From the IMG/VR virus record IMGVR_UViG_3300021599_002354: a stretch of DNA of 20,000 nt. One strand, written 5' to 3'. Origin of the DNA: an uncultured virus (IMG/VR IMGVR_UViG_3300021599_002354). Taxonomy: Duplodnaviria > Heunggongvirae > Uroviricota > Caudoviricetes. Numbering within the stretch: the stretch's first letter is position 1; each line of letters opens with the position of its first letter. Below the pieces are notes generated by a model, which saw only the letters and a list, made by a program, of their open reading frames with translations, did no database searches and was not told the DNA's origin. The position numbers were made by a program, and so were the translations under genes. Shown piece by piece: positions 1,801 to 20,000 of this stretch.

Positions 1801-1953
1801 ATGGCATGTTCAAGTTGTAAAAAAAAGGAGACTTTTAAAAACGAAATTAAAGAAACGGGTGATTTAGTATCCAAAAAAATTGTTTGGTTTGCAATTATTT
1901 GGTCGATTTTGGGGTTGTATGGTTTGTATTCTTTGGTAACCAAATTTATATGA
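1801..1953 (+). CDS. Small membrane protein with N-terminal CxxC (50 aa)
   Basis: Not in the ORF track. MACSSCKKKETFKNEIKETGDLVSKKIVWFAIIWSILGLYGLYSLVTKFI*; its TGA overlaps the next ATG (ATGA at 1950-1953); TATATT at 1790-1795 upstream. Confidence 0.7.
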   Translation: MACSSCKKKETFKNEIKETGDLVSKKIVWFAIIWSILGLYGLYSLVTKFI

Positions 1954-2588
1954 AAAATGGCAAATACTTTATAGTACTTTTTTGTAACAAAAAAAGAAAA
2001 AAAATATTACATCGTTGTATGAAACGTACAACGATAACTGAGTATTGGCATCAATTCAAAACAAAAGTAAAACCACCATTTACTAAAATTCAAGGTGGTA
2101 AAAGAAAACAAGAGAACATATTTGAATTAGCTCTTATATACCCATATAATAGATGGGTCACATCGGTATACGTAAAAGATAGTTTAGGTAGAAATATCGA
2201 AGCAAAAATGGAAAACGATAAATTTAGAATCAAAGAAATTATTCCATATTGGGAAGAGGAACTGATATATGATTTTCAATCAAAAAAAAGAATTAGATAC
2301 TATCAATTGTTAAGTCAAATTTTACCTGTCTCTGAGATCGGTCAGATCTTCACCTTAAATAATAAACTATTGATACAGGTAGAGGATAATATAAAATTAT
2401 TTAGTAATAAAAATCCTACAGATGCGGAAAGATTATTTGAAATAATAAAAAACGATTTGTTAAATAAAAAAAGACAAAACTTTATTTTTGTCAAAGACGT
2501 TACAACACATCAGAGAAAGTTATTGTACGATATGTTAGAAAAGAAAGGTTACAAAAGAGAAGAACTTAGTCGGCATTATTCGTATTAA
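1950..2588 (+). CDS. Hypothetical basic protein
   Basis: ORF track 1884-2588; the ATG at 1950 is preferred because it couples to the stop of 1801-1953. Confidence 0.75.
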   Translation: MKNGKYFIVLFCNKKRKKILHRCMKRTTITEYWHQFKTKVKPPFTKIQGGKRKQENIFELALIYPYNRWVTSVYVKDSLGRNIEAKMENDKFRIKEIIPYWEEELIYDFQSKKRIRYYQLLSQILPVSEIGQIFTLNNKLLIQVEDNIKLFSNKNPTDAERLFEIIKNDLLNKKRQNFIFVKDVTTHQRKLLYDMLEKKGYKREELSRHYSY

Positions 2589-2805
2589 AAACTATTTCAG
2601 TCGTTCCGATTTTTATTGTGAAAGTATTTTCAGGTTTTATCTGATTGTATCTTCCAAATTTACTTTCTATTAAATCATATATTTTTTCAAACTCAACTTT
2701 GGATACTTCAAATATCAGTGTCGGTGATTTTAAATTATATTGTAATTTTTCAATTATATCAGATATCTCTGCCAACTTTGTTAAAAATTCAACTTTTTTT
2801 TCCAT
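2566..2805 (-). CDS. Hypothetical protein (79 aa)
   Basis: ATG start, overlaps upstream gene, part of a tightly packed minus-strand run. Confidence 0.7.
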   Translation of the reverse strand: MEKKVEFLTKLAEISDIIEKLQYNLKSPTLIFEVSKVEFEKIYDLIESKFGRYNQIKPENTFTIKIGTTEIVFNTNNAD

Positions 2806-2992
2806 ATCCTAATATAATAAGTATTTTATCTAATATAGATATTTTCTTTTTTGGTTTAGGTGAGAACATTTTAGATTTATCTAAAGACTTAATCTCCTCA
2901 ATCAACTGATTCTTGTGGTTCGTCAGATCGATCTTGTCCTTCTCCATCTCCCGTTTCAACCAATCTGATGCCTGTTGTATCCTTTTGTCCAT
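2789..2992 (-). CDS. Hypothetical protein (67 aa) with C-terminal amphipathic segment
   Basis: ATG start, helical composition, ends ILDKILIILGYGKKS; overlaps both neighbours. Confidence 0.65.
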   Translation of the reverse strand: MDKRIQQASDWLKREMEKDKIDLTNHKNQLIEEIKSLDKSKMFSPKPKKKISILDKILIILGYGKKS

Positions 2993-3353
2993 TTATTGGT
3001 AGTAAATTTATTTCTTTTAAATTTTCTAAAGATTGTTTTTTGAACAACTCTTGTAATTCTTTTACTTTTTGTTGAAATAAAAATTCTTTTTCTTCTTCCT
3101 CTTTATTAACTCTCAATATTTCATTCGCACAAGCAAAAACAACATCATACCCATTTTGTGTTGCATGTGATATTAATGAAATTAAATTAAATTTTTCATT
3201 CTTATCTTGAATTTTAATTGCGATAGAACTGTAAGGTTTTGCAATATTTTCATACTTCCAAGATAATGGTAATTTAATATCTAAACTCACGTTGTCTTGT
3301 ACTTCTCTTAAAGAGTGGAAATAAGGTCTTAATGTTTTTATATTTTCAAACAC
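2898..3353 (-). CDS. Hypothetical protein (151 aa)
   Basis: GTG start 4 nt downstream of the previous stop; coiled-coil-like C-terminal half. Confidence 0.75.
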   Translation of the reverse strand: MFENIKTLRPYFHSLREVQDNVSLDIKLPLSWKYENIAKPYSSIAIKIQDKNEKFNLISLISHATQNGYDVVFACANEILRVNKEEEEKEFLFQQKVKELQELFKKQSLENLKEINLLPINGQKDTTGIRLVETGDGEGQDRSDEPQESVD

Positions 3354-3357
3354 GAAT

Positions 3358-3540
3358 TTAAATTATTAGGTTAGTTATTATATATGATATCGTTAAGTAT
3401 GTGAAAATCTTTTCTACATTTGTATATTTTATTGGTTCAGGATTATTTACAACCAATCTCATGATTAGATCAAATAATCTAACCCCTAAAAACAATAACG
3501 ATAATACAAGAATGAATATATTAATTTGTTGTGGTATCAT
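3358..3540 (-). CDS. Small two-TM membrane protein
   Basis: Two hydrophobic segments, INIFILVLSLLFLGVRLF and IFTYLTISYIITNLII. Confidence 0.7.
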   Translation of the reverse strand: MIPQQINIFILVLSLLFLGVRLFDLIMRLVVNNPEPIKYTNVEKIFTYLTISYIITNLII

Positions 3541-3712
3541 GTTTTTTCATTTCTTCTAAAATTTCTTTTCTATATACACCTATCAAGAACTTAATTTCTT
3601 GTGCATATTTTCTTGCTCTAATTGATGCACTTCGGTTCCCTTTCTCAAAAACTTTTTGTGTATCAACAGACATTTTTTCAACCAATTCTTTGATTTTTTT
3701 TAAAGTATCCAT
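3521..3712 (-). CDS. Histone H1-like Hc1-family nucleoid protein
   Basis: D..K..EKGNRSASIRARK..QEIK....YRKE matches the GNKAAGTRARK core of short Bacteroidota/Chlamydia Hc1-type proteins. Confidence 0.75.
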   Translation of the reverse strand: MDTLKKIKELVEKMSVDTQKVFEKGNRSASIRARKYAQEIKFLIGVYRKEILEEMKKHDTTTN

Positions 3713-3755
3713 ATTAATTTTTTTCAGTTATTAATACTAATATATGAAAAAAATT

Positions 3756-4211
3756 TTACTTTTTCAAGTTTTGATCAAGTAATTTATATACTTCGGTTAG
3801 AATGTCCAGTTCTGATCTTGTTTTTTTGTGTTTAAAATCAAACAGTTTAGAAAAGTATTCATTTATTTTAATTATACGTTTATCTATTTGAGGGTAATAG
3901 TACGCCTCTAAAAAGAAATTCCAAAAATAATCAAAATGATTACCTCTACTTTTAAAGAATATTTTTTCTTTATCGAAACTTTCTAAGGTTTTATCCCAAC
4001 ACCAAATGAAATGTCCTCTTTGTGATGGTTCTTCGAATAGTACGTCAGGTCCGAGATATGTTTTATCAATTAAATCATATAATGATTTTAAAAAATCGTA
4101 AAACAATTCAGTTTTTTCTCGACTTATATTATATGTCTTATACCAAATGTCTATTTGATGTTTGTAGCTTTCAGATGCAATAAACTCTAAATAACCTTCT
4201 TTATTTTCCAT
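3756..4211 (-). CDS. Hypothetical aromatic-rich helical protein (151 aa)
   Basis: Clean ORF with its own upstream TATATTA motif. Confidence 0.8.
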   Translation of the reverse strand: MENKEGYLEFIASESYKHQIDIWYKTYNISREKTELFYDFLKSLYDLIDKTYLGPDVLFEEPSQRGHFIWCWDKTLESFDKEKIFFKSRGNHFDYFWNFFLEAYYYPQIDKRIIKINEYFSKLFDFKHKKTRSELDILTEVYKLLDQNLKK

Positions 4212-6429: not shown

Positions 6430-6668
6430 TATCTAACCGATTTTAATGCACTTTCCCAGAAAGATTTTCTTTGCCAAAGTGTTTTGAATAATTCTACCAC
6501 AACTTTGGTTGATAAATCAATTATTTTGTCATCAATTTTTTTTGTTCCGAGTTCATCTTGTATAATTTTGATAACAATTTTATGAGCCTGAGTTGTCTCC
6601 ATAAAATTGTTTATTTCTTTTTTTACAATTTTTTCGATTTCTCTTTTATCTTGTTCTGTAAATGACAT
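6429..6668 (-). CDS. Hypothetical protein (79 aa)
   Basis: 1-nt stop/start (TAATG) coupling with both neighbours. Confidence 0.8.
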   Translation of the reverse strand: MSFTEQDKREIEKIVKKEINNFMETTQAHKIVIKIIQDELGTKKIDDKIIDLSTKVVVELFKTLWQRKSFWESALKSVR

Positions 6669-7210
6669 TATATATTATTCTTTCTACTGTCGATTATTGA
6701 TTCAAAAGTTGTTTTGAATGTCTCTTCAAATTTTACTAATTTATCTAAAACTTGTCCAACTTCATTTTCTAATTTCATCATTTCCGCATTAACATATACA
6801 CCAGAATCTTTACCTGCGATGAATACAAAACTTATATCCTCATCGGATAATTTACCATCTAATCTAACTTGATCTTGATTTATTGTTAAACCTGGTTCAA
6901 AATCTACAATTTGTGAAACTTGTTGTTTGAAGTTATCCAATAGGTCTGATATTGATTTCTTTTGTTCATCTGTCAAATCCATATCCGCCTCGTCATTTGA
7001 TATCATTTTAACATCCACATCATTGATCGCAGTAATGTTGTCTTTTTGTCCACTGTCTCCTGTTTCCTTATTAGAATCCATATCAACACCAAATTCAGTG
7101 TCTTCTAATAGTTTATTTGCTTTTTTTGATTGATGTGATTCATTTAACTTTCTCAATGTGTTCAACATTGTTTTTGTCTGATCGTATGCTATGACTTTTC
7201 TCTTATCCAT
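6668..7210 (-). CDS. Hypothetical acidic protein (180 aa)
   Basis: Clean ORF, overlapping or coupled at both ends. Confidence 0.8.
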   Translation of the reverse strand: MDKRKVIAYDQTKTMLNTLRKLNESHQSKKANKLLEDTEFGVDMDSNKETGDSGQKDNITAINDVDVKMISNDEADMDLTDEQKKSISDLLDNFKQQVSQIVDFEPGLTINQDQVRLDGKLSDEDISFVFIAGKDSGVYVNAEMMKLENEVGQVLDKLVKFEETFKTTFESIIDSRKNNI

Positions 7211-16228: not shown

Positions 16229-16537
16229 TTATCCATTTTTATTTTCGAAATATTCAATTATTGCATTTAGTGCCCATACTGATCCTGCGGTAAACATTCC
16301 ATCAAAGAATATTCCAAATATCCAATGAATATCGAAATAGTTTCTTGATAAACCACCCAAACATAAAGATAGAAAGAATCCTACCCATGTTGAAGTGCAA
16401 AGTGTACAACTAACTAAATCACCAAAAAATTTTGAGTGTGATTTTATCCATTCCCTTGTTGTTTCAAAGATACTTCCCCAAACAATAATCGATGTCATAC
16501 CATATGACATAAAAATCCAAAATAATAATATATCCAT
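16229..16537 (-). CDS. DUF1360-like small membrane protein
   Basis: IFETTREWI...GDLVSCTLCTSTWVG with flanking TM helices. Confidence 0.7.
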   Translation of the reverse strand: MDILLFWIFMSYGMTSIIVWGSIFETTREWIKSHSKFFGDLVSCTLCTSTWVGFFLSLCLGGLSRNYFDIHWIFGIFFDGMFTAGSVWALNAIIEYFENKNG

Positions 16538-16584
16538 ATAACAATATTTTTTATAAAATAAGAAAAAAAAATGACAATTTGAAA

Positions 16585-17121
16585 TTACTCATCGTATAAT
16601 GTATTCAAATCACTATTTTTTAAAAACCGACCTTTATTTAGTTTTTGTAAAGAAGATGTAATTTTTTCTAATTCAGTTTTTAAATCCTGATTTTCTTTCA
16701 TTAATTTTTCTAATTCTTTTGTGTTTGTGACTTCTTTTTGTACCTCAACAATTTTTTCAACAGGTACTTCTTTTATTACTTCTTTAATCACAATTTTTGT
16801 ATCGCCTTTAATTTCAATTGGAACTTCTTTAACAACCTCAACAATTTTTTCAACAGGTACTTCTTTTATTACTTCTACGATTTTTTCTACCGGTACCTCT
16901 TTAATCACCTCAATAATCTTTTCAACTTCAATTTCTTTGATTACTTCTTTTTCAACTACTTTTTCTTTGCCTCTGGCAATTTTTGGTGTTTCACCATATT
17001 TTATAATAGAAAATCCTTTAGAAAAGATTTCTTTGGCAAGTTTATCAATATCTGAAATTTTATTTAATTCACAATATTGTAAAAATTCATCATCCAATAT
17101 TAAGGAGGTTTTCTTTTTCAT
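16585..17121 (-). CDS. KEVPVEKIVEV-repeat protein with C-terminal coiled coil
   Basis: Tandem 12-aa units EVIKEVPVEKIV; ATG at 17121 preferred over TTG at 17127. Confidence 0.8.
   Translation of the reverse strand: MKKKTSLILDDEFLQYCELNKISDIDKLAKEIFSKGFSIIKYGETPKIARGKEKVVEKEVIKEIEVEKIIEVIKEVPVEKIVEVIKEVPVEKIVEVVKEVPIEIKGDTKIVIKEVIKEVPVEKIVEVQKEVTNTKELEKLMKENQDLKTELEKITSSLQKLNKGRFLKNSDLNTLYDE
16742..16876. repeat. Identical 42-nt direct repeat within a coding 36-nt-period repeat tract
   Basis: acctcaacaattttttcaacaggtacttcttttattacttct at 16742-16783 and 16835-16876; degenerate copies continue to about 16960. Confidence 0.85.
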
Positions 17122-17896
17122 TTTCAATGTCTCTTATATCATTTATCGAAAAATGAAGAAATGGTTGTTCATTTTTCAAATCGTGAAACGTATATTCATC
17201 AGTTTCAACATTATATGTACCATAACCATGATGTTTAATTGTTTCACCAAAATTTTGTTGGATTAATGAACCAATCATAACCGCCTTTCCACCATTAGGT
17301 AATTTAAACATTTGTCTTTTGTGTATATCACCACACAGTAATAAATCTAAGTTGATAAAATTAAGTCTATCATAACCATCTTCGAATTGAAAACCTATAT
17401 CTGTTGACATTCCTTGAATCACCCCATGAAATAAACCAACATATAACATATCTTCTTCTTTTTCAAACTGTGGTCTTTCATTATGTTGATATAATGAATA
17501 AACAACCCAATTAATATTTTCATCTTCATATACACCACTATCTTTATAATATTTAATCTCATCACGATTCAACAACTCTACTATTGGTGTGATACTGTCC
17601 ATTCTTTGAGTATTGTTTTCAAGAAAATCATGATTACCAGGTATGATAATAACTCTTCCGATATGATCAACAAGTTGAGTAATAAACCAAGATGTTAGCA
17701 TCATTTGCTCATTAGAGATGTTGATTTTCTGATGTGCTAAATCACCAACAATTACAACTCTCACCTCTTCATAGTCATAACCTTTAATTTCTTTTTTTAA
17801 ATTCTCAATAAGAATTTCAAATTGTTTTTTATATAGATCGTGTAACTGAAATGTTCTGATATGTATATCAGCGATATGTATAAGTTTTTTTACCAT
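17090..17896 (-). CDS. SbcD/Mre11/gp47-like metallophosphoesterase nuclease
   Basis: Motifs ADIH, GDLAH, GNHD, FHG, GDIH, GSLIQQNFGE; close to the SbcC-like gene. Confidence 0.9.
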   Translation of the reverse strand: MVKKLIHIADIHIRTFQLHDLYKKQFEILIENLKKEIKGYDYEEVRVVIVGDLAHQKINISNEQMMLTSWFITQLVDHIGRVIIIPGNHDFLENNTQRMDSITPIVELLNRDEIKYYKDSGVYEDENINWVVYSLYQHNERPQFEKEEDMLYVGLFHGVIQGMSTDIGFQFEDGYDRLNFINLDLLLCGDIHKRQMFKLPNGGKAVMIGSLIQQNFGETIKHHGYGTYNVETDEYTFHDLKNEQPFLHFSINDIRDIENEKENLLNIG

Positions 17897-18749
17897 AATT
17901 TATATATTTTGTCATATCCAAGTTCATAACTTTATTAATTACATCTGGTGGTACTTTATATTCTTGATGTGTTCCATCATCTTTTAATAACACAATTACA
18001 CAACCTAATAATTTTAAATTTTCATATTTTGTGCCTTTCAACATTTTAATCAATAATCTTGCATACAATGGTAATTGTAAATAATAATGACCTAACGCAG
18101 TATCATGATAGTTTTGAAATGGATCGTACATTTTACCGGTGTAATGTTGGATTTCAAAGTTTTTTGGTTGATTTGTTTTCCAATCGGTAACAACTAAACC
18201 AAAATCTGTATTATCCTTATTCATCATTAACCAACACTTGTCAGGTTGTCCTGTATAACCAAGTTCATTATCGCCAAGTATTGCCTCTGTATCGAGAAGT
18301 ATTGCACCTCTTTGTTCCATAATATTTAAAAATTCGGTTCCCGCTTTTATCATCTCATTACTTCTATTTGTTTGTGTTTCATCACATTCAAATATTGGTT
18401 GCCTAACATCTTTATAATTACCATTTCTTGCTATCGCCTCCATTTCAAGTTCAAAGTGTACTCTACTTCCCATATTAGTTGCATAGGAACCAGCTTGTCT
18501 CCATTGTTCTTGTAATTGTGCTGCAGCTTCAGGATCACCATTAGACATTCTGAGAGCAGTACCTTCAGCATCAAATGGTTTGAAAAACTTTTTTATAACC
18601 TTAGAAACTGATGGAAATGTTTTTCTTAATACACCTTCCGTGTCTCTCATGTAATAGATATGTTCTTCTTCAACAAATGAGATATCTAATTCTTTTCTTC
18701 TGTTTTCTAATAATTCATTAATTTCTTTAGAAATTTCTTTTAAATTCAT
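17868..18749 (-). CDS. PD-(D/E)XK superfamily exonuclease
   Basis: PSVSKVI, GSRVH..LE, GQPD, DWKT, Y.LQL.LY motifs of RecB-like phage nucleases. Confidence 0.85.
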   Translation of the reverse strand: MNLKEISKEINELLENRRKELDISFVEEEHIYYMRDTEGVLRKTFPSVSKVIKKFFKPFDAEGTALRMSNGDPEAAAQLQEQWRQAGSYATNMGSRVHFELEMEAIARNGNYKDVRQPIFECDETQTNRSNEMIKAGTEFLNIMEQRGAILLDTEAILGDNELGYTGQPDKCWLMMNKDNTDFGLVVTDWKTNQPKNFEIQHYTGKMYDPFQNYHDTALGHYYLQLPLYARLLIKMLKGTKYENLKLLGCVIVLLKDDGTHQEYKVPPDVINKVMNLDMTKYINYGKKTYTYR

Positions 18750-19687
18750 TAATCTAACTGTTTAATTTTATAATTACTCAGATCTCCTTTGAGGTCTGCT
18801 ATATCTTTATTTCCCTCCAATTTTATAGTATACACTTTACCCATAAGTTTACCACAATTTAATTTATGATATAATTTTTCTGCATCAAACCAAGCATCGG
18901 GATCCAAAACAATTACCACATCTTTTTTAACATTATCATAAATTTTATCAAATAAGTGTTGTGACATAAATTTACCTAACATAGGGATAGAATTAGGTAA
19001 GAAAATACTATCGAAAGCACCCTCAACAATATATATTCTTTCATTCCAATCAATTAAATGTTCATTCCAAATTATTATTTCTTTTTGTACCTCAGGATTT
19101 TTATACTTTAATTTTGTTTTAGATAAAAATGACCTTGCAACAAAATAGTTTAAATTTTTTTCAGTATCATATGAAGGAATTATAATCCTATTTTCATATA
19201 GACCACTTAAACAAAAACCAATATTATATTTTTTTATAATTTCATCTGTTATGTTTCTATTTTTAATATAATTTAACGCTTGTTTATATTGTGGTAACAA
19301 TTTAACTCCTTGTGACACTTCATTGAATGATACAAATTCTTTTGGTAGATAAATCCTTTTGTATATTCTTTTGTTTTCTTCGACCTCATCCGGTAATAAT
19401 AGTTCGAATTTTTTTATTTGTTTTTTATTACCGTATTTTTTAACAAATTTATATAATGATCCATGTGTATCATGTGATTCTGCACAAGACCAACATTTGT
19501 AAACTCTTAATTTATAGTTTATTTCTAAGTTACCTTTACCGTCTCCACTATCTAATCCTTTAATTTCATATGAACACACGGGACAATCAAAAGAAATTTG
19601 GCACTTATAATCATTGTGTAATTTATAATCACCAAGAATTTCTTCTAAGATATCTATTATGGGTTCATAATTTAAATCATTAGACAT
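18749..19687 (-). CDS. DNA primase (Zn finger + TOPRIM)
   Basis: CPVC...CWSC Zn ribbon, Y...RNI, RIIIP, KYKNP, TOPRIM IVEGAFD and LDPDA. ATG at 19687 preferred because the ORF-track extension runs through a terminator. Confidence 0.92.
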   Translation of the reverse strand: MSNDLNYEPIIDILEEILGDYKLHNDYKCQISFDCPVCSYEIKGLDSGDGKGNLEINYKLRVYKCWSCAESHDTHGSLYKFVKKYGNKKQIKKFELLLPDEVEENKRIYKRIYLPKEFVSFNEVSQGVKLLPQYKQALNYIKNRNITDEIIKKYNIGFCLSGLYENRIIIPSYDTEKNLNYFVARSFLSKTKLKYKNPEVQKEIIIWNEHLIDWNERIYIVEGAFDSIFLPNSIPMLGKFMSQHLFDKIYDNVKKDVVIVLDPDAWFDAEKLYHKLNCGKLMGKVYTIKLEGNKDIADLKGDLSNYKIKQLD

Positions 19688-19714
19688 GAATAAAATATAA
19701 GAAAAAAAAGTTGT

Positions 19715-19747
19715 AAAAAAAATGGGGGAGAACACCACCTCTCCCCC
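19715..19747 (-). terminator. Intrinsic terminator
   Basis: Minus strand GGGGGAGA-ggtggtgt-TCTCCCCC-A-TTTTTTTT: 8-bp GC-rich stem plus T8. Confidence 0.85.
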
Positions 19748-19792
19748 TACCAACTAAACGCAGATTTTAACATCTACGTCCCGTCTCCATTA
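19715..19792 (-). ncRNA. Candidate small structured RNA
   Basis: ATATTTAT motif at 19793-19800, then a GC-rich stretch with hairpin ACGTAGAT-gttaaa-ATCTGCGT and the terminator hairpin. Confidence 0.4.
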
Positions 19793-19827
19793 ATAAATAT
19801 AATATAATAATTTTCAGATAAGAAATC

Positions 19828-20000
19828 TTAGTTGCCGGATTTATCTGATTTCAACATATTAACGAATCCAATAACCGCAGTTGCGGCGTCCGCCATGTCG
19901 TAATTTTCTTTTTTTAAATGCATCCGCCTTTTTTAATAGTTCCTCAATTTTATCTTCTGGTTGCGGTTTTATCTTTGGTGAAAAGTGAGTTAATTCTAAT
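19828..20000 (-). pseudogene. Disrupted RuvC-like resolvase: N-terminal-type segment joined out of frame to the C-terminal segment
   Basis: Frame A (from 19999) LELTHFSPKIKPQPEDKIEELLKKADAFKK then non-protein-like residues and a stop at 19859. Frame B LKKENYDMADAATAVIGFVNMLKSDKSGN* carries the RuvC-type DxxDA motif but is closed by TAA at 19933-19935. Confidence 0.55.

Follow-up and report, generated by a model that had tools for sequence, protein, structure and literature searches.

Small RNAs encoded by phages are known mainly from a few model enterobacterial phages. In lambdoid phages, the lambda 6S RNA (pR' to tR') and StxS of Stx phages are short, promoter-proximal terminated transcripts; a short RNA of this type can itself be a regulatory sRNA, and the units depend on the Q antiterminator at their promoter. 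The T-box antiterminator bulge UGGN pairs with the 3' NCCA end of tRNA, and L15 of RNase P has a GGU. To our knowledge, environmental jumbo phages, whose hosts are probably of Bacteroidota type, are almost unexplored at the RNA level. A preprint concerns a trans-acting phage sRNA, one of lambda that acts on host replication (bioRxiv 10.1101/2024.10.31.621285). A recent catalogue (Fremin, Bhatt and Kyrpides, 2023; PMC10690425) draws on IMG/VR to predict 10,006 unnamed candidate structured RNAs; its tables place seven csRNAs within 25 bp upstream of primase-domain genes, and the entries of four of these describe marine or human-gut motifs.

We analysed a 20,000-nt stretch of DNA (the window) from an uncultured virus of the Caudoviricetes (IMG/VR IMGVR_UViG_3300021599_002354), in which an initial annotation had proposed a self-contained small transcription unit between a RuvC-like gene and a primase gene. 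This unit resembles lambda 6S and StxS in that a phage promoter, here a putative one, and a strong intrinsic terminator lie within ~70-200 nt of each other just upstream of an operon. Unlike them, it has no known Q-like system, it is followed past the terminator by a separate promoter-like module, and its terminator loop is conserved; the element also has no sequence or Rfam similarity to 6S/StxS-type units. With HK022 put and lambda nut it shares stem-loops within ~70 nt just past a promoter, fixed nucleotides in covarying helices, a GNRA-type loop in the first hairpin and a G/U-rich element that recalls boxC, whereas its second hairpin is a canonical terminator, it occurs as a single copy per genome, and we recognised no boxA-like element. 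Its exposed UGGU(G), complementary to ...(C)ACCA-3', is reminiscent of the T-box bulge and of RNase P L15, but it is without the Stem I/specifier, the sequence context and the antiterminator/terminator alternative of a T-box, and these phages encode 22-25 tRNAs. Like the lambda sRNA outlined in the preprint, the RNA predicted here would be small, independently transcribed, ended by a terminator hairpin and either adjacent to replication functions or tied to them; in contrast to it, the candidate contact would be a G/U-rich terminator loop and not a 5' single-stranded seed. Since an enterobacterial host is improbable, Hfq dependence is not to be assumed.

All features lie on the minus strand. 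The upstream neighbour is the 3' end of a RuvC-like Holliday-junction resolvase gene (19828..20000; stop codon TAA at 19830-19828), which extends past the window edge and encodes 203 aa when read at full length in the identical record L002. Its product matched PHROG 159 (E = 7.5e-7) and had no match in Pfam. The downstream neighbour is a DnaG/gp61-type DNA primase gene of 312 aa (18749..19687; ATG at 19687), with matches to PHROG 47 (E = 1.5e-40) and to the Pfam family DNAG_N (32 bits), and a primase is the downstream neighbour of the RNA element in all family members. Between the two genes, a promoter-like octamer, TATATTTA (19801-19794; in an alternative register ATATTTAT, 19800-19793), lies 8 nt 5' of a GACGG and is inferred from its sequence to be the -10/-7 element of the small unit. 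The RNA element itself is ~73 nt long (19715..19787), counted from the putative start to the end of the U-tract. The octamer, hairpin and terminator to which the initial annotation had drawn attention were all found in place, including the stem of ACGTAGAT and ATCTGCGT with its one G-U pair (within 19779-19758), directly followed by TTAGTTGGTA.

Folds and covariation extended this first hairpin, which is real but longer than had been described: GAC-G-GGAC (19785-19778) pairs with GTTT-A-GTT (19759-19752), giving a 34-nt hairpin that we refer to as P1 (19752..19785). P1 thus consists of a basal GAC/GUU helix, a G/A internal loop, a GGAC/GUUU helix with two G-U pairs, and a variable upper stem (ACGUAGAU/AUCUGCGU) and loop, and it comprises the conserved GACGGGAC (19785-19778) on its 5' side and part of GTTTAGTTGGTA (19759-19748) on its 3' side. 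A single-stranded 4-nt linker, GGUA (19748..19751), is placed by alignment and folds within a conserved GUUGGU(R) and leads to the terminator hairpin P2, GGGGGAGA(G)/(U)UCUCCCCC (19724..19747), whose stem covaries freely. As DNA, P2 reads GGGGGAGAG-GTGGTG-TTCTCCCCC, which is the GGGGGAGA-8 nt-TCTCCCCC of the initial annotation (19747-19724). Its loop is GUGGUG (19733..19738) with the invariant core UGGUG (19737-19733), and one A separates the hairpin from a U8 tract (19715..19722). P2 and the U-tract have the make-up of an intrinsic (Rho-independent) terminator, a G+C-rich hairpin followed by a U-tract, and they were the first-listed site in a terminator scan (9 pairs, 6 of them G-C; 6-nt loop; T8) that found 18 terminator-like sites in the window compared with 5.5 ± 2.4 in shuffles. 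The separate T-tract/TATATT motif that had been reported before the primase is present as a second promoter-like module (19694..19709; T8 at 19709-19702 and TATATT at 19699-19694), 6 nt before the primase ATG.

The window belongs to a 66-kb IMG/VR record with a completeness estimate of ~20%, and the element stands out from this record in G+C content (0.47 versus 0.313), in line with the GC-richness relative to the surroundings that had been remarked on. The 143-nt intergenic RNA has a folding energy of -34.9 kcal/mol (z = -3.1), a stability matched by 1 of 200 shuffles. A 7-codon ORF (METGRRC, ATG to TAA) does occur at 19790-19767, as had been pointed out. By eye in the element listing, however, an ATG just before GACGG is found only in the window type and in one other locus (L034), where it would encode another peptide; METGRRC is not conserved, and we rejected it as a small protein gene. 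Elsewhere in the window (16585-17127, minus strand), VEKIVEVIKEVP-type repeats stand in tandem in an ORF of 180 aa; the long mirror ORFs opposite it are probably repeat artefacts.

We next compared the element with known RNAs. The Rfam comparison that the initial annotation had called for gave no family: at gathering thresholds, Rfam 15 had 0 matches in the window and 0 in eight relatives, and a permissive scan of 19500-20000 gave only sub-threshold matches at chance level, the best on the element strand being the S15 leader (14.2 bits versus a threshold of 39.5). No Rfam T-box family was among the matches, and P1 has a GNRA or UUAAAA loop without a specifier-like internal loop. ARAGORN found no tRNA or tmRNA in the window. 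Likenesses to a Cas13b/Cas12a repeat mimic, SRP Alu, Y RNA, a G-quadruplex, a Shine-Dalgarno mimic and a Chi-like site were dropped, being partial and at non-conserved positions. The DNA of 19600-20000 had no match among 50,697 deposited phage records, and the closest cultured-phage primases, from Flavobacterium phages, are only 31.6% identical. A search for RNA sequencing runs that contain the stretch listed none, and three small lake metatranscriptome runs, searched as contigs, had no alignment to 19500-20000, which is uninformative either way. Titles and abstract openings returned by a full-text literature search contained no description of the element. With the csRNAs of PMC10690425, as its tables describe them, the element shares the IMG/VR source and the character of terminator-containing, gene-proximal covarying motifs; relative to the 25-bp table, it ends 27 nt before the ATG. 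The RNA family is thus apparently undescribed, set apart from the motifs of that catalogue by the table entries of four of them only.

Conservation of the element was examined in several sets of relatives. A primase-based search of IMG/VR gave 24 loci, and relatives with a primase identity of at least 64% shared the upstream architecture, each stem being built of other sequence. We then combined the invariant pieces into a strict pattern, and scanning IMG/VR with it gave 68 loci, 65 of which have a RuvC-like gene upstream and a primase (63-100% identical) downstream; the other three, which have neither gene and no promoter motif or terminator, were discarded as chance matches. The 65 loci contain 36 distinct elements, which we aligned together with the divergent elements of L006 and L008 (alignment A2; MAFFT, not structure-fitted; 38 sequences). 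RNAalifold predicted two hairpins with 19 pairs, 12 of which show compensatory changes. Standard pairs filled 95.9% of cells, compared with 69.2% in shuffled alignments (0 of 500 reached the observed value) and 33-57% with slid partners. In the upper stem of P1, both sides of a pair had changed in 7-17 of the 38 sequences, and in P2 both-side changes were found in all nine pairs, with 92.4% of cells paired; folding each RNA individually gave the two-hairpin form as well. G-U pairs are frequent, which identifies the strand that folds as the gene strand.

Since the strict pattern presupposes the conserved motifs, we assembled a second sample by primase alone (80 metagenome loci, primase identity 48-77%). 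A covariance model (R1), which scores the window element at 69.4 bits (E = 1.4e-14) as its sole match in the 66-kb record, matched 43 of these 80 loci, and every model-positive locus lies directly upstream of the primase. In this set, fitted to the model, 97.4% of cells were paired versus 62.3%, 16 of 18 pairs were compensatory, and the wider sampling revealed compensatory changes in the basal pairs of P1 as well. Covariation analysis therefore has the same outcome in the 38 distinct relatives and in the primase-ascertained set, with both P1 and P2 covarying. The initial annotation had allowed that only a terminator for the upstream gene would be left if the first hairpin showed no conservation or covariation; because P1 and P2 covary in relatives, this is not the case. 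Judging from these comparisons, the two-hairpin structure is clearly under selection as RNA, and we regard the predicted element as a real and well-supported phage non-coding RNA family of a generally known kind, the phage small transcription unit or sRNA.

Within A2, the (nearly) invariant parts are the 5' GACGG..C, the GUU(U)RGUUGG past the upper stem, the U-tract and the loop UGGUGU, which (as TGGTGT in DNA) shows no change in 38 of 38 sequences. All 38 members carry the terminator, with covarying stems and T5-9. The top of P1, by contrast with its sequence-fixed, G-U-rich base, varies in sequence and length; its loops are GNRA (GAAA, GUAA, GCAA) or UUAAAA, and its apical part accommodates long insertions in L209 and L225. 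The stem of P2 is wholly free in sequence.

We also asked what sequences recur upstream of genes in these phages. Across 729 upstream intergenic regions of five related genomes, TATATTTA, ATATTTAT and TATTTATA were the most enriched 8-mers (16-20 fold), and TATATTTG was enriched 11.5 fold. TATATTTG and TATCTTTG, both enriched upstream of genes, resemble the Bacteroidota -7 promoter element, for the former in what we take to be its TAnnTTTG consensus. At the element, each of the 36 distinct upstream sequences has an octamer of the TATNTTTA type whose end is 4-9 nt away from GACGG, often with a T-run 5' of it, and this octamer would be the small unit's own promoter. On the other side of the terminator, all printed distinct downstream sequences have, by eye, a T-run together with a hexamer resembling TATATT, at 5-12 nt from the primase ATG. 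Should T-run/TATATT modules at this distance from start codons act as promoters, they would give mRNAs with little or no leader.

The surroundings of the element vary more than the element does. In L058 and L079 the cassette is intact although a gene of 274 aa has been placed between it and the RuvC-like gene, and it is likewise unchanged with other intervening DNA in L198, L199, L185 and L211. The inserted ORF (L058, 618-1442; also in L079) has, by eye, a Rossmann-type GxGxxG N-terminus. Together with the covariation and the fixed spacing of the octamer, this intactness despite upstream insertions supports the proposal of a self-contained promoter-hairpin-terminator unit. In 18 more distant relatives, the RuvC-like stop and the primase ATG are ~35-40 nt apart with the T-run/TATATT module alone, and neither a terminator nor the RNA was found at the junction. 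As these relatives have only the promoter-like motif, the cassette is best described as an inserted self-contained module: ~110 nt of predicted promoter, RNA and terminator, inserted 5' of a pre-existing promoter-like module of the primase. A search with the RuvC-like protein of L007 gave one further contig, with a different downstream gene and without the element at the junction.

In some lineages the cassette has been lost or cut to a plain terminator (L009, L188 and L223). L009 retains a plain terminator with a different loop and without P1. There, a primase-like start (MTDKIVDYSPVIDILE) follows the terminator, then an opposite-strand ORF of 282 aa (1895-2743) that looks, by eye, like a GIY-YIG homing endonuclease, and the full primase ORF begins at 2989; the region (1834-3924) has the look of an insertion by a homing endonuclease in which the 5' end of the primase gene was duplicated. 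In L188, whose primase is 68% identical, both the RNA cassette and the terminator are absent and the T-run/TATATT module is kept. The primase of this locus is directly preceded by an ORF (~1-430) in which we noted, by eye, an HNH-like motif.

The most conserved part of the element is the terminator loop. Using a structure-blind script, we screened every locus that has 150 nt or more of sequence 5' of the primase for a hairpin followed by a T-run in that region. With a primase identity of at least 63% (30 loci), a terminator was present in 29, and in all 29 TGGTG was in the loop. At 56-62% identity (16 loci), 11 had a terminator and 10 a TGGTG loop, to which L204 and L219 can be added by eye, with imperfect stems; below 56% (29 loci), there were no terminators and no TGGTG loops. 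In the 56-65% group, unrelated AT-rich sequence with another small hairpin stands in place of the GACGGGAC-type P1; what is kept is the promoter-like TATATTT and the UGGUG in the loop of the terminator. UGGUG is thus retained where P1 has been replaced, which makes the loop the oldest and most constrained feature of the element. It is also specific to the locus: a TGGTG loop occurs in 5 of the 151 terminator-like hairpins of the five related genomes, each of them at this locus, and the other 146 have ordinary loops.

What might such a unit do? The reading that we prefer, at middling confidence, is a new phage small-RNA gene whose product acts in trans. From the motifs, transcription would start a few bases before GACGG at the TATATTTA-type promoter and stop ~70 nt on at the strong intrinsic terminator, and the resulting discrete ~70-nt RNA would act through the UGGUG loop, the conserved base of P1 and the linker. 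A contact surface for a complementary CA-rich RNA (...CACCA...) or for a protein could be made up of the exposed G/U-rich loop, the base of P1 and the linker. Most likely, termination would be constitutive and the primase would be transcribed from its own promoter. The evidence leans towards an independent sRNA gene because relatives that have no cassette still carry a promoter-like motif for the primase and because no conserved antiterminator pairing is apparent. Against action in trans stand the constant adjacency to the primase, which is as expected of a cis-acting element, and the location of the conserved loop, since the seeds of base-pairing sRNAs are mostly 5' and single-stranded and a conserved terminator loop is unusual.

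Searches for targets did not single out a partner. Scanning the loop against the start regions of genes in five genomes gave no convincing conserved site; the top candidate, a weak one, was ACACCATAA, ~31 nt upstream of a 141-aa gene in G001-G004. Because CACCATAAA also occurs ~20 nt before other genes, this candidate looks like a promoter-type motif. We observed (A)CACCATAAA(A) 20-32 nt upstream of several starts (G002 165,020, 167,293 and 172,429, plus strand, and the 141-aa gene of G001-G004), and it may be another promoter class that is by chance complementary to the loop of the RNA. ACACCA is common in coding sequence, with 67 coding-strand occurrences in the 66-kb record. The corresponding scan with the linker gave no conserved complementary site; a site shared by G002 and G004 was rejected, as it is due to a conserved YQPIV peptide and mismatches the RNA of G004 itself.

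Promoter, short structured leader, terminator and gene in this order are also the layout of a classical attenuator, and we therefore weighed the possibility, which we consider unlikely, that the element is a control cassette acting in cis. A factor would read the nascent P1 base and/or UGGUG and allow read-through into the primase-nuclease operon; absent that factor, transcripts from the TATATTTA promoter and from the RuvC-like gene would stop at the terminator, and the ~70-nt RNA would be a by-product of termination. By analogy, such a cassette would be a delayed-early switch like lambda N/nut, lambda Q/tR' or HK022 put. The location speaks for it: the primase is the next gene after the element in each of the 65 true IMG/VR loci and in each model-positive metagenome locus, and the element keeps this position when upstream synteny changes. 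The sequence-invariant P1 base and loop suggest recognition by a factor, and P1 is mostly capped by a GNRA tetraloop, like boxB-type hairpins. The terminator, however, is near-ideal (8-11 bp G+C-rich stem, U7-9), and a promoter-like module lies between it and the primase ATG in every member; in sister lineages this module stands alone at the junction, from which it follows that primase expression needs no cassette. The element is present as one copy per genome, nut/put sites being one per early operon, and no candidate antiterminator protein was identified. Inspection of the element listing and of A2 revealed no conserved antiterminator pairing, and none of the conserved, mutually exclusive pairings that characterise a riboswitch or attenuator. 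Indeed, the terminator arms are wholly different between members (GGGGGAGA, CCCCGGGG, GGGAGUCGA and others) and the upstream segments are invariant, so that no conserved complementarity is possible. This lack of a conserved antiterminator alternative, the near-ideal terminator and a primase module that suffices in sister lineages are why we prefer an sRNA over an attenuator.

The primase itself could be the partner, an explanation we hold to be improbable. Here TGGTG, in the RNA or in the loop of displaced non-template DNA, would be recognised by the zinc-finger primase, and the hairpin would let the primase regulate itself, as an operator or decoy, or would signal priming or an origin when fired by the local promoter. 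Put differently, a UGGUG hairpin in RNA or displaced DNA would mimic the template site of the primase and so titrate or autoregulate it or mark a priming start, which is doubtful to the same degree; we know of no described RNA decoy or operator for a DnaG-type primase. G/T-rich pentanucleotides are typical sites of phage DnaG-type primases and origins often adjoin replication genes, and the element is strictly linked to this primase type over 56-100% identity, has a loop motif unique to one hairpin per genome and lies in very AT-rich surroundings with two or three T-runs. Yet L009, L188 and L223 have the same primase without the motif, the invariable U-tract and the many G-U pairs are more in keeping with an RNA terminator than with a signal in DNA, and no iterons or repeats were noticed. 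Five genomes have no extremum of cumulative GC skew and no switch of gene orientation at the element, a weak argument since skew mostly follows transcription. Least probable of all, and in our view very improbable, is a plain terminator of the RuvC-like gene that insulates the primase operon, its hairpin and loop conserved by relatedness alone. L009 does have such a terminator, with its different loop and no P1, and RuvC-like transcripts must end at P2 because the RuvC-like gene has no other terminator. Relatedness alone would nevertheless leave unexplained that TGGTGT, GACGG..C and GTTGG are invariant although the neighbours have diverged to 63% (primase) and 80% (RuvC-like), that both stems have changed by compensatory substitutions, that the other 146 terminator-like hairpins have ordinary loops, that a promoter-like motif lies at a fixed distance, and that sister lineages need no terminator at this junction.

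The carriers are AT-rich jumbo phages, all of one uncultured lineage known from metagenomes of lake type. One copy of the element is present in the 66-kb record of the window and in each of four phage records of 234-324 kb (70-97% complete). The related jumbo phages have 30-35% G+C and 22-25 tRNA genes, which form clusters in G001-G004. A tmRNA is present in two of them, and its tag of 20-21 residues is unusual, GNVYNNMEVAG... (ARAGORN; G002 119,903-120,304 and G004 6,451-6,857). The TAnnTTTG-like upstream motifs and the 31.6%-identical Flavobacterium phage primase are the only two pointers to a host, and they suggest a member of the Bacteroidota. Prokaryote genomes (one per species; 185,579 species, 596 Gb) gave 21 pattern matches, none of which is a true member; the best scored 22.9 bits, compared with 47-87 bits for true members, and no host copy or prophage of the element was found in the genomes scanned. 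A second orphan unit is present in all four large relatives, with a promoter-like motif (TATATATTTATAT), an RNA of ~100 nt (GAGGUUCUCUUUGUCGAUUACC...GUGGGGUUGAACCCAC...) and a terminator (G002:C1 ~96,430-96,570, plus strand, which equals L099 ~16,430-16,570; G001 ~76.7 kb, plus; G003 ~82.0 kb, minus; G004 ~292.2 kb, plus). It had no Rfam match and was not detected in the 66-kb record. Small promoter-to-terminator units are therefore not unique in these phages.

With ~100 loci, strong covariation and natural variants that lack either half, the element offers a clean testable case. Even with no role assigned to it, the element could be proposed as a new RNA family, and it supplies a covariance model for annotating these phages. 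If its loop contacts a host RNA, a tRNA end or the primase, the element would represent a new way in which a phage couples RNA regulation to replication.
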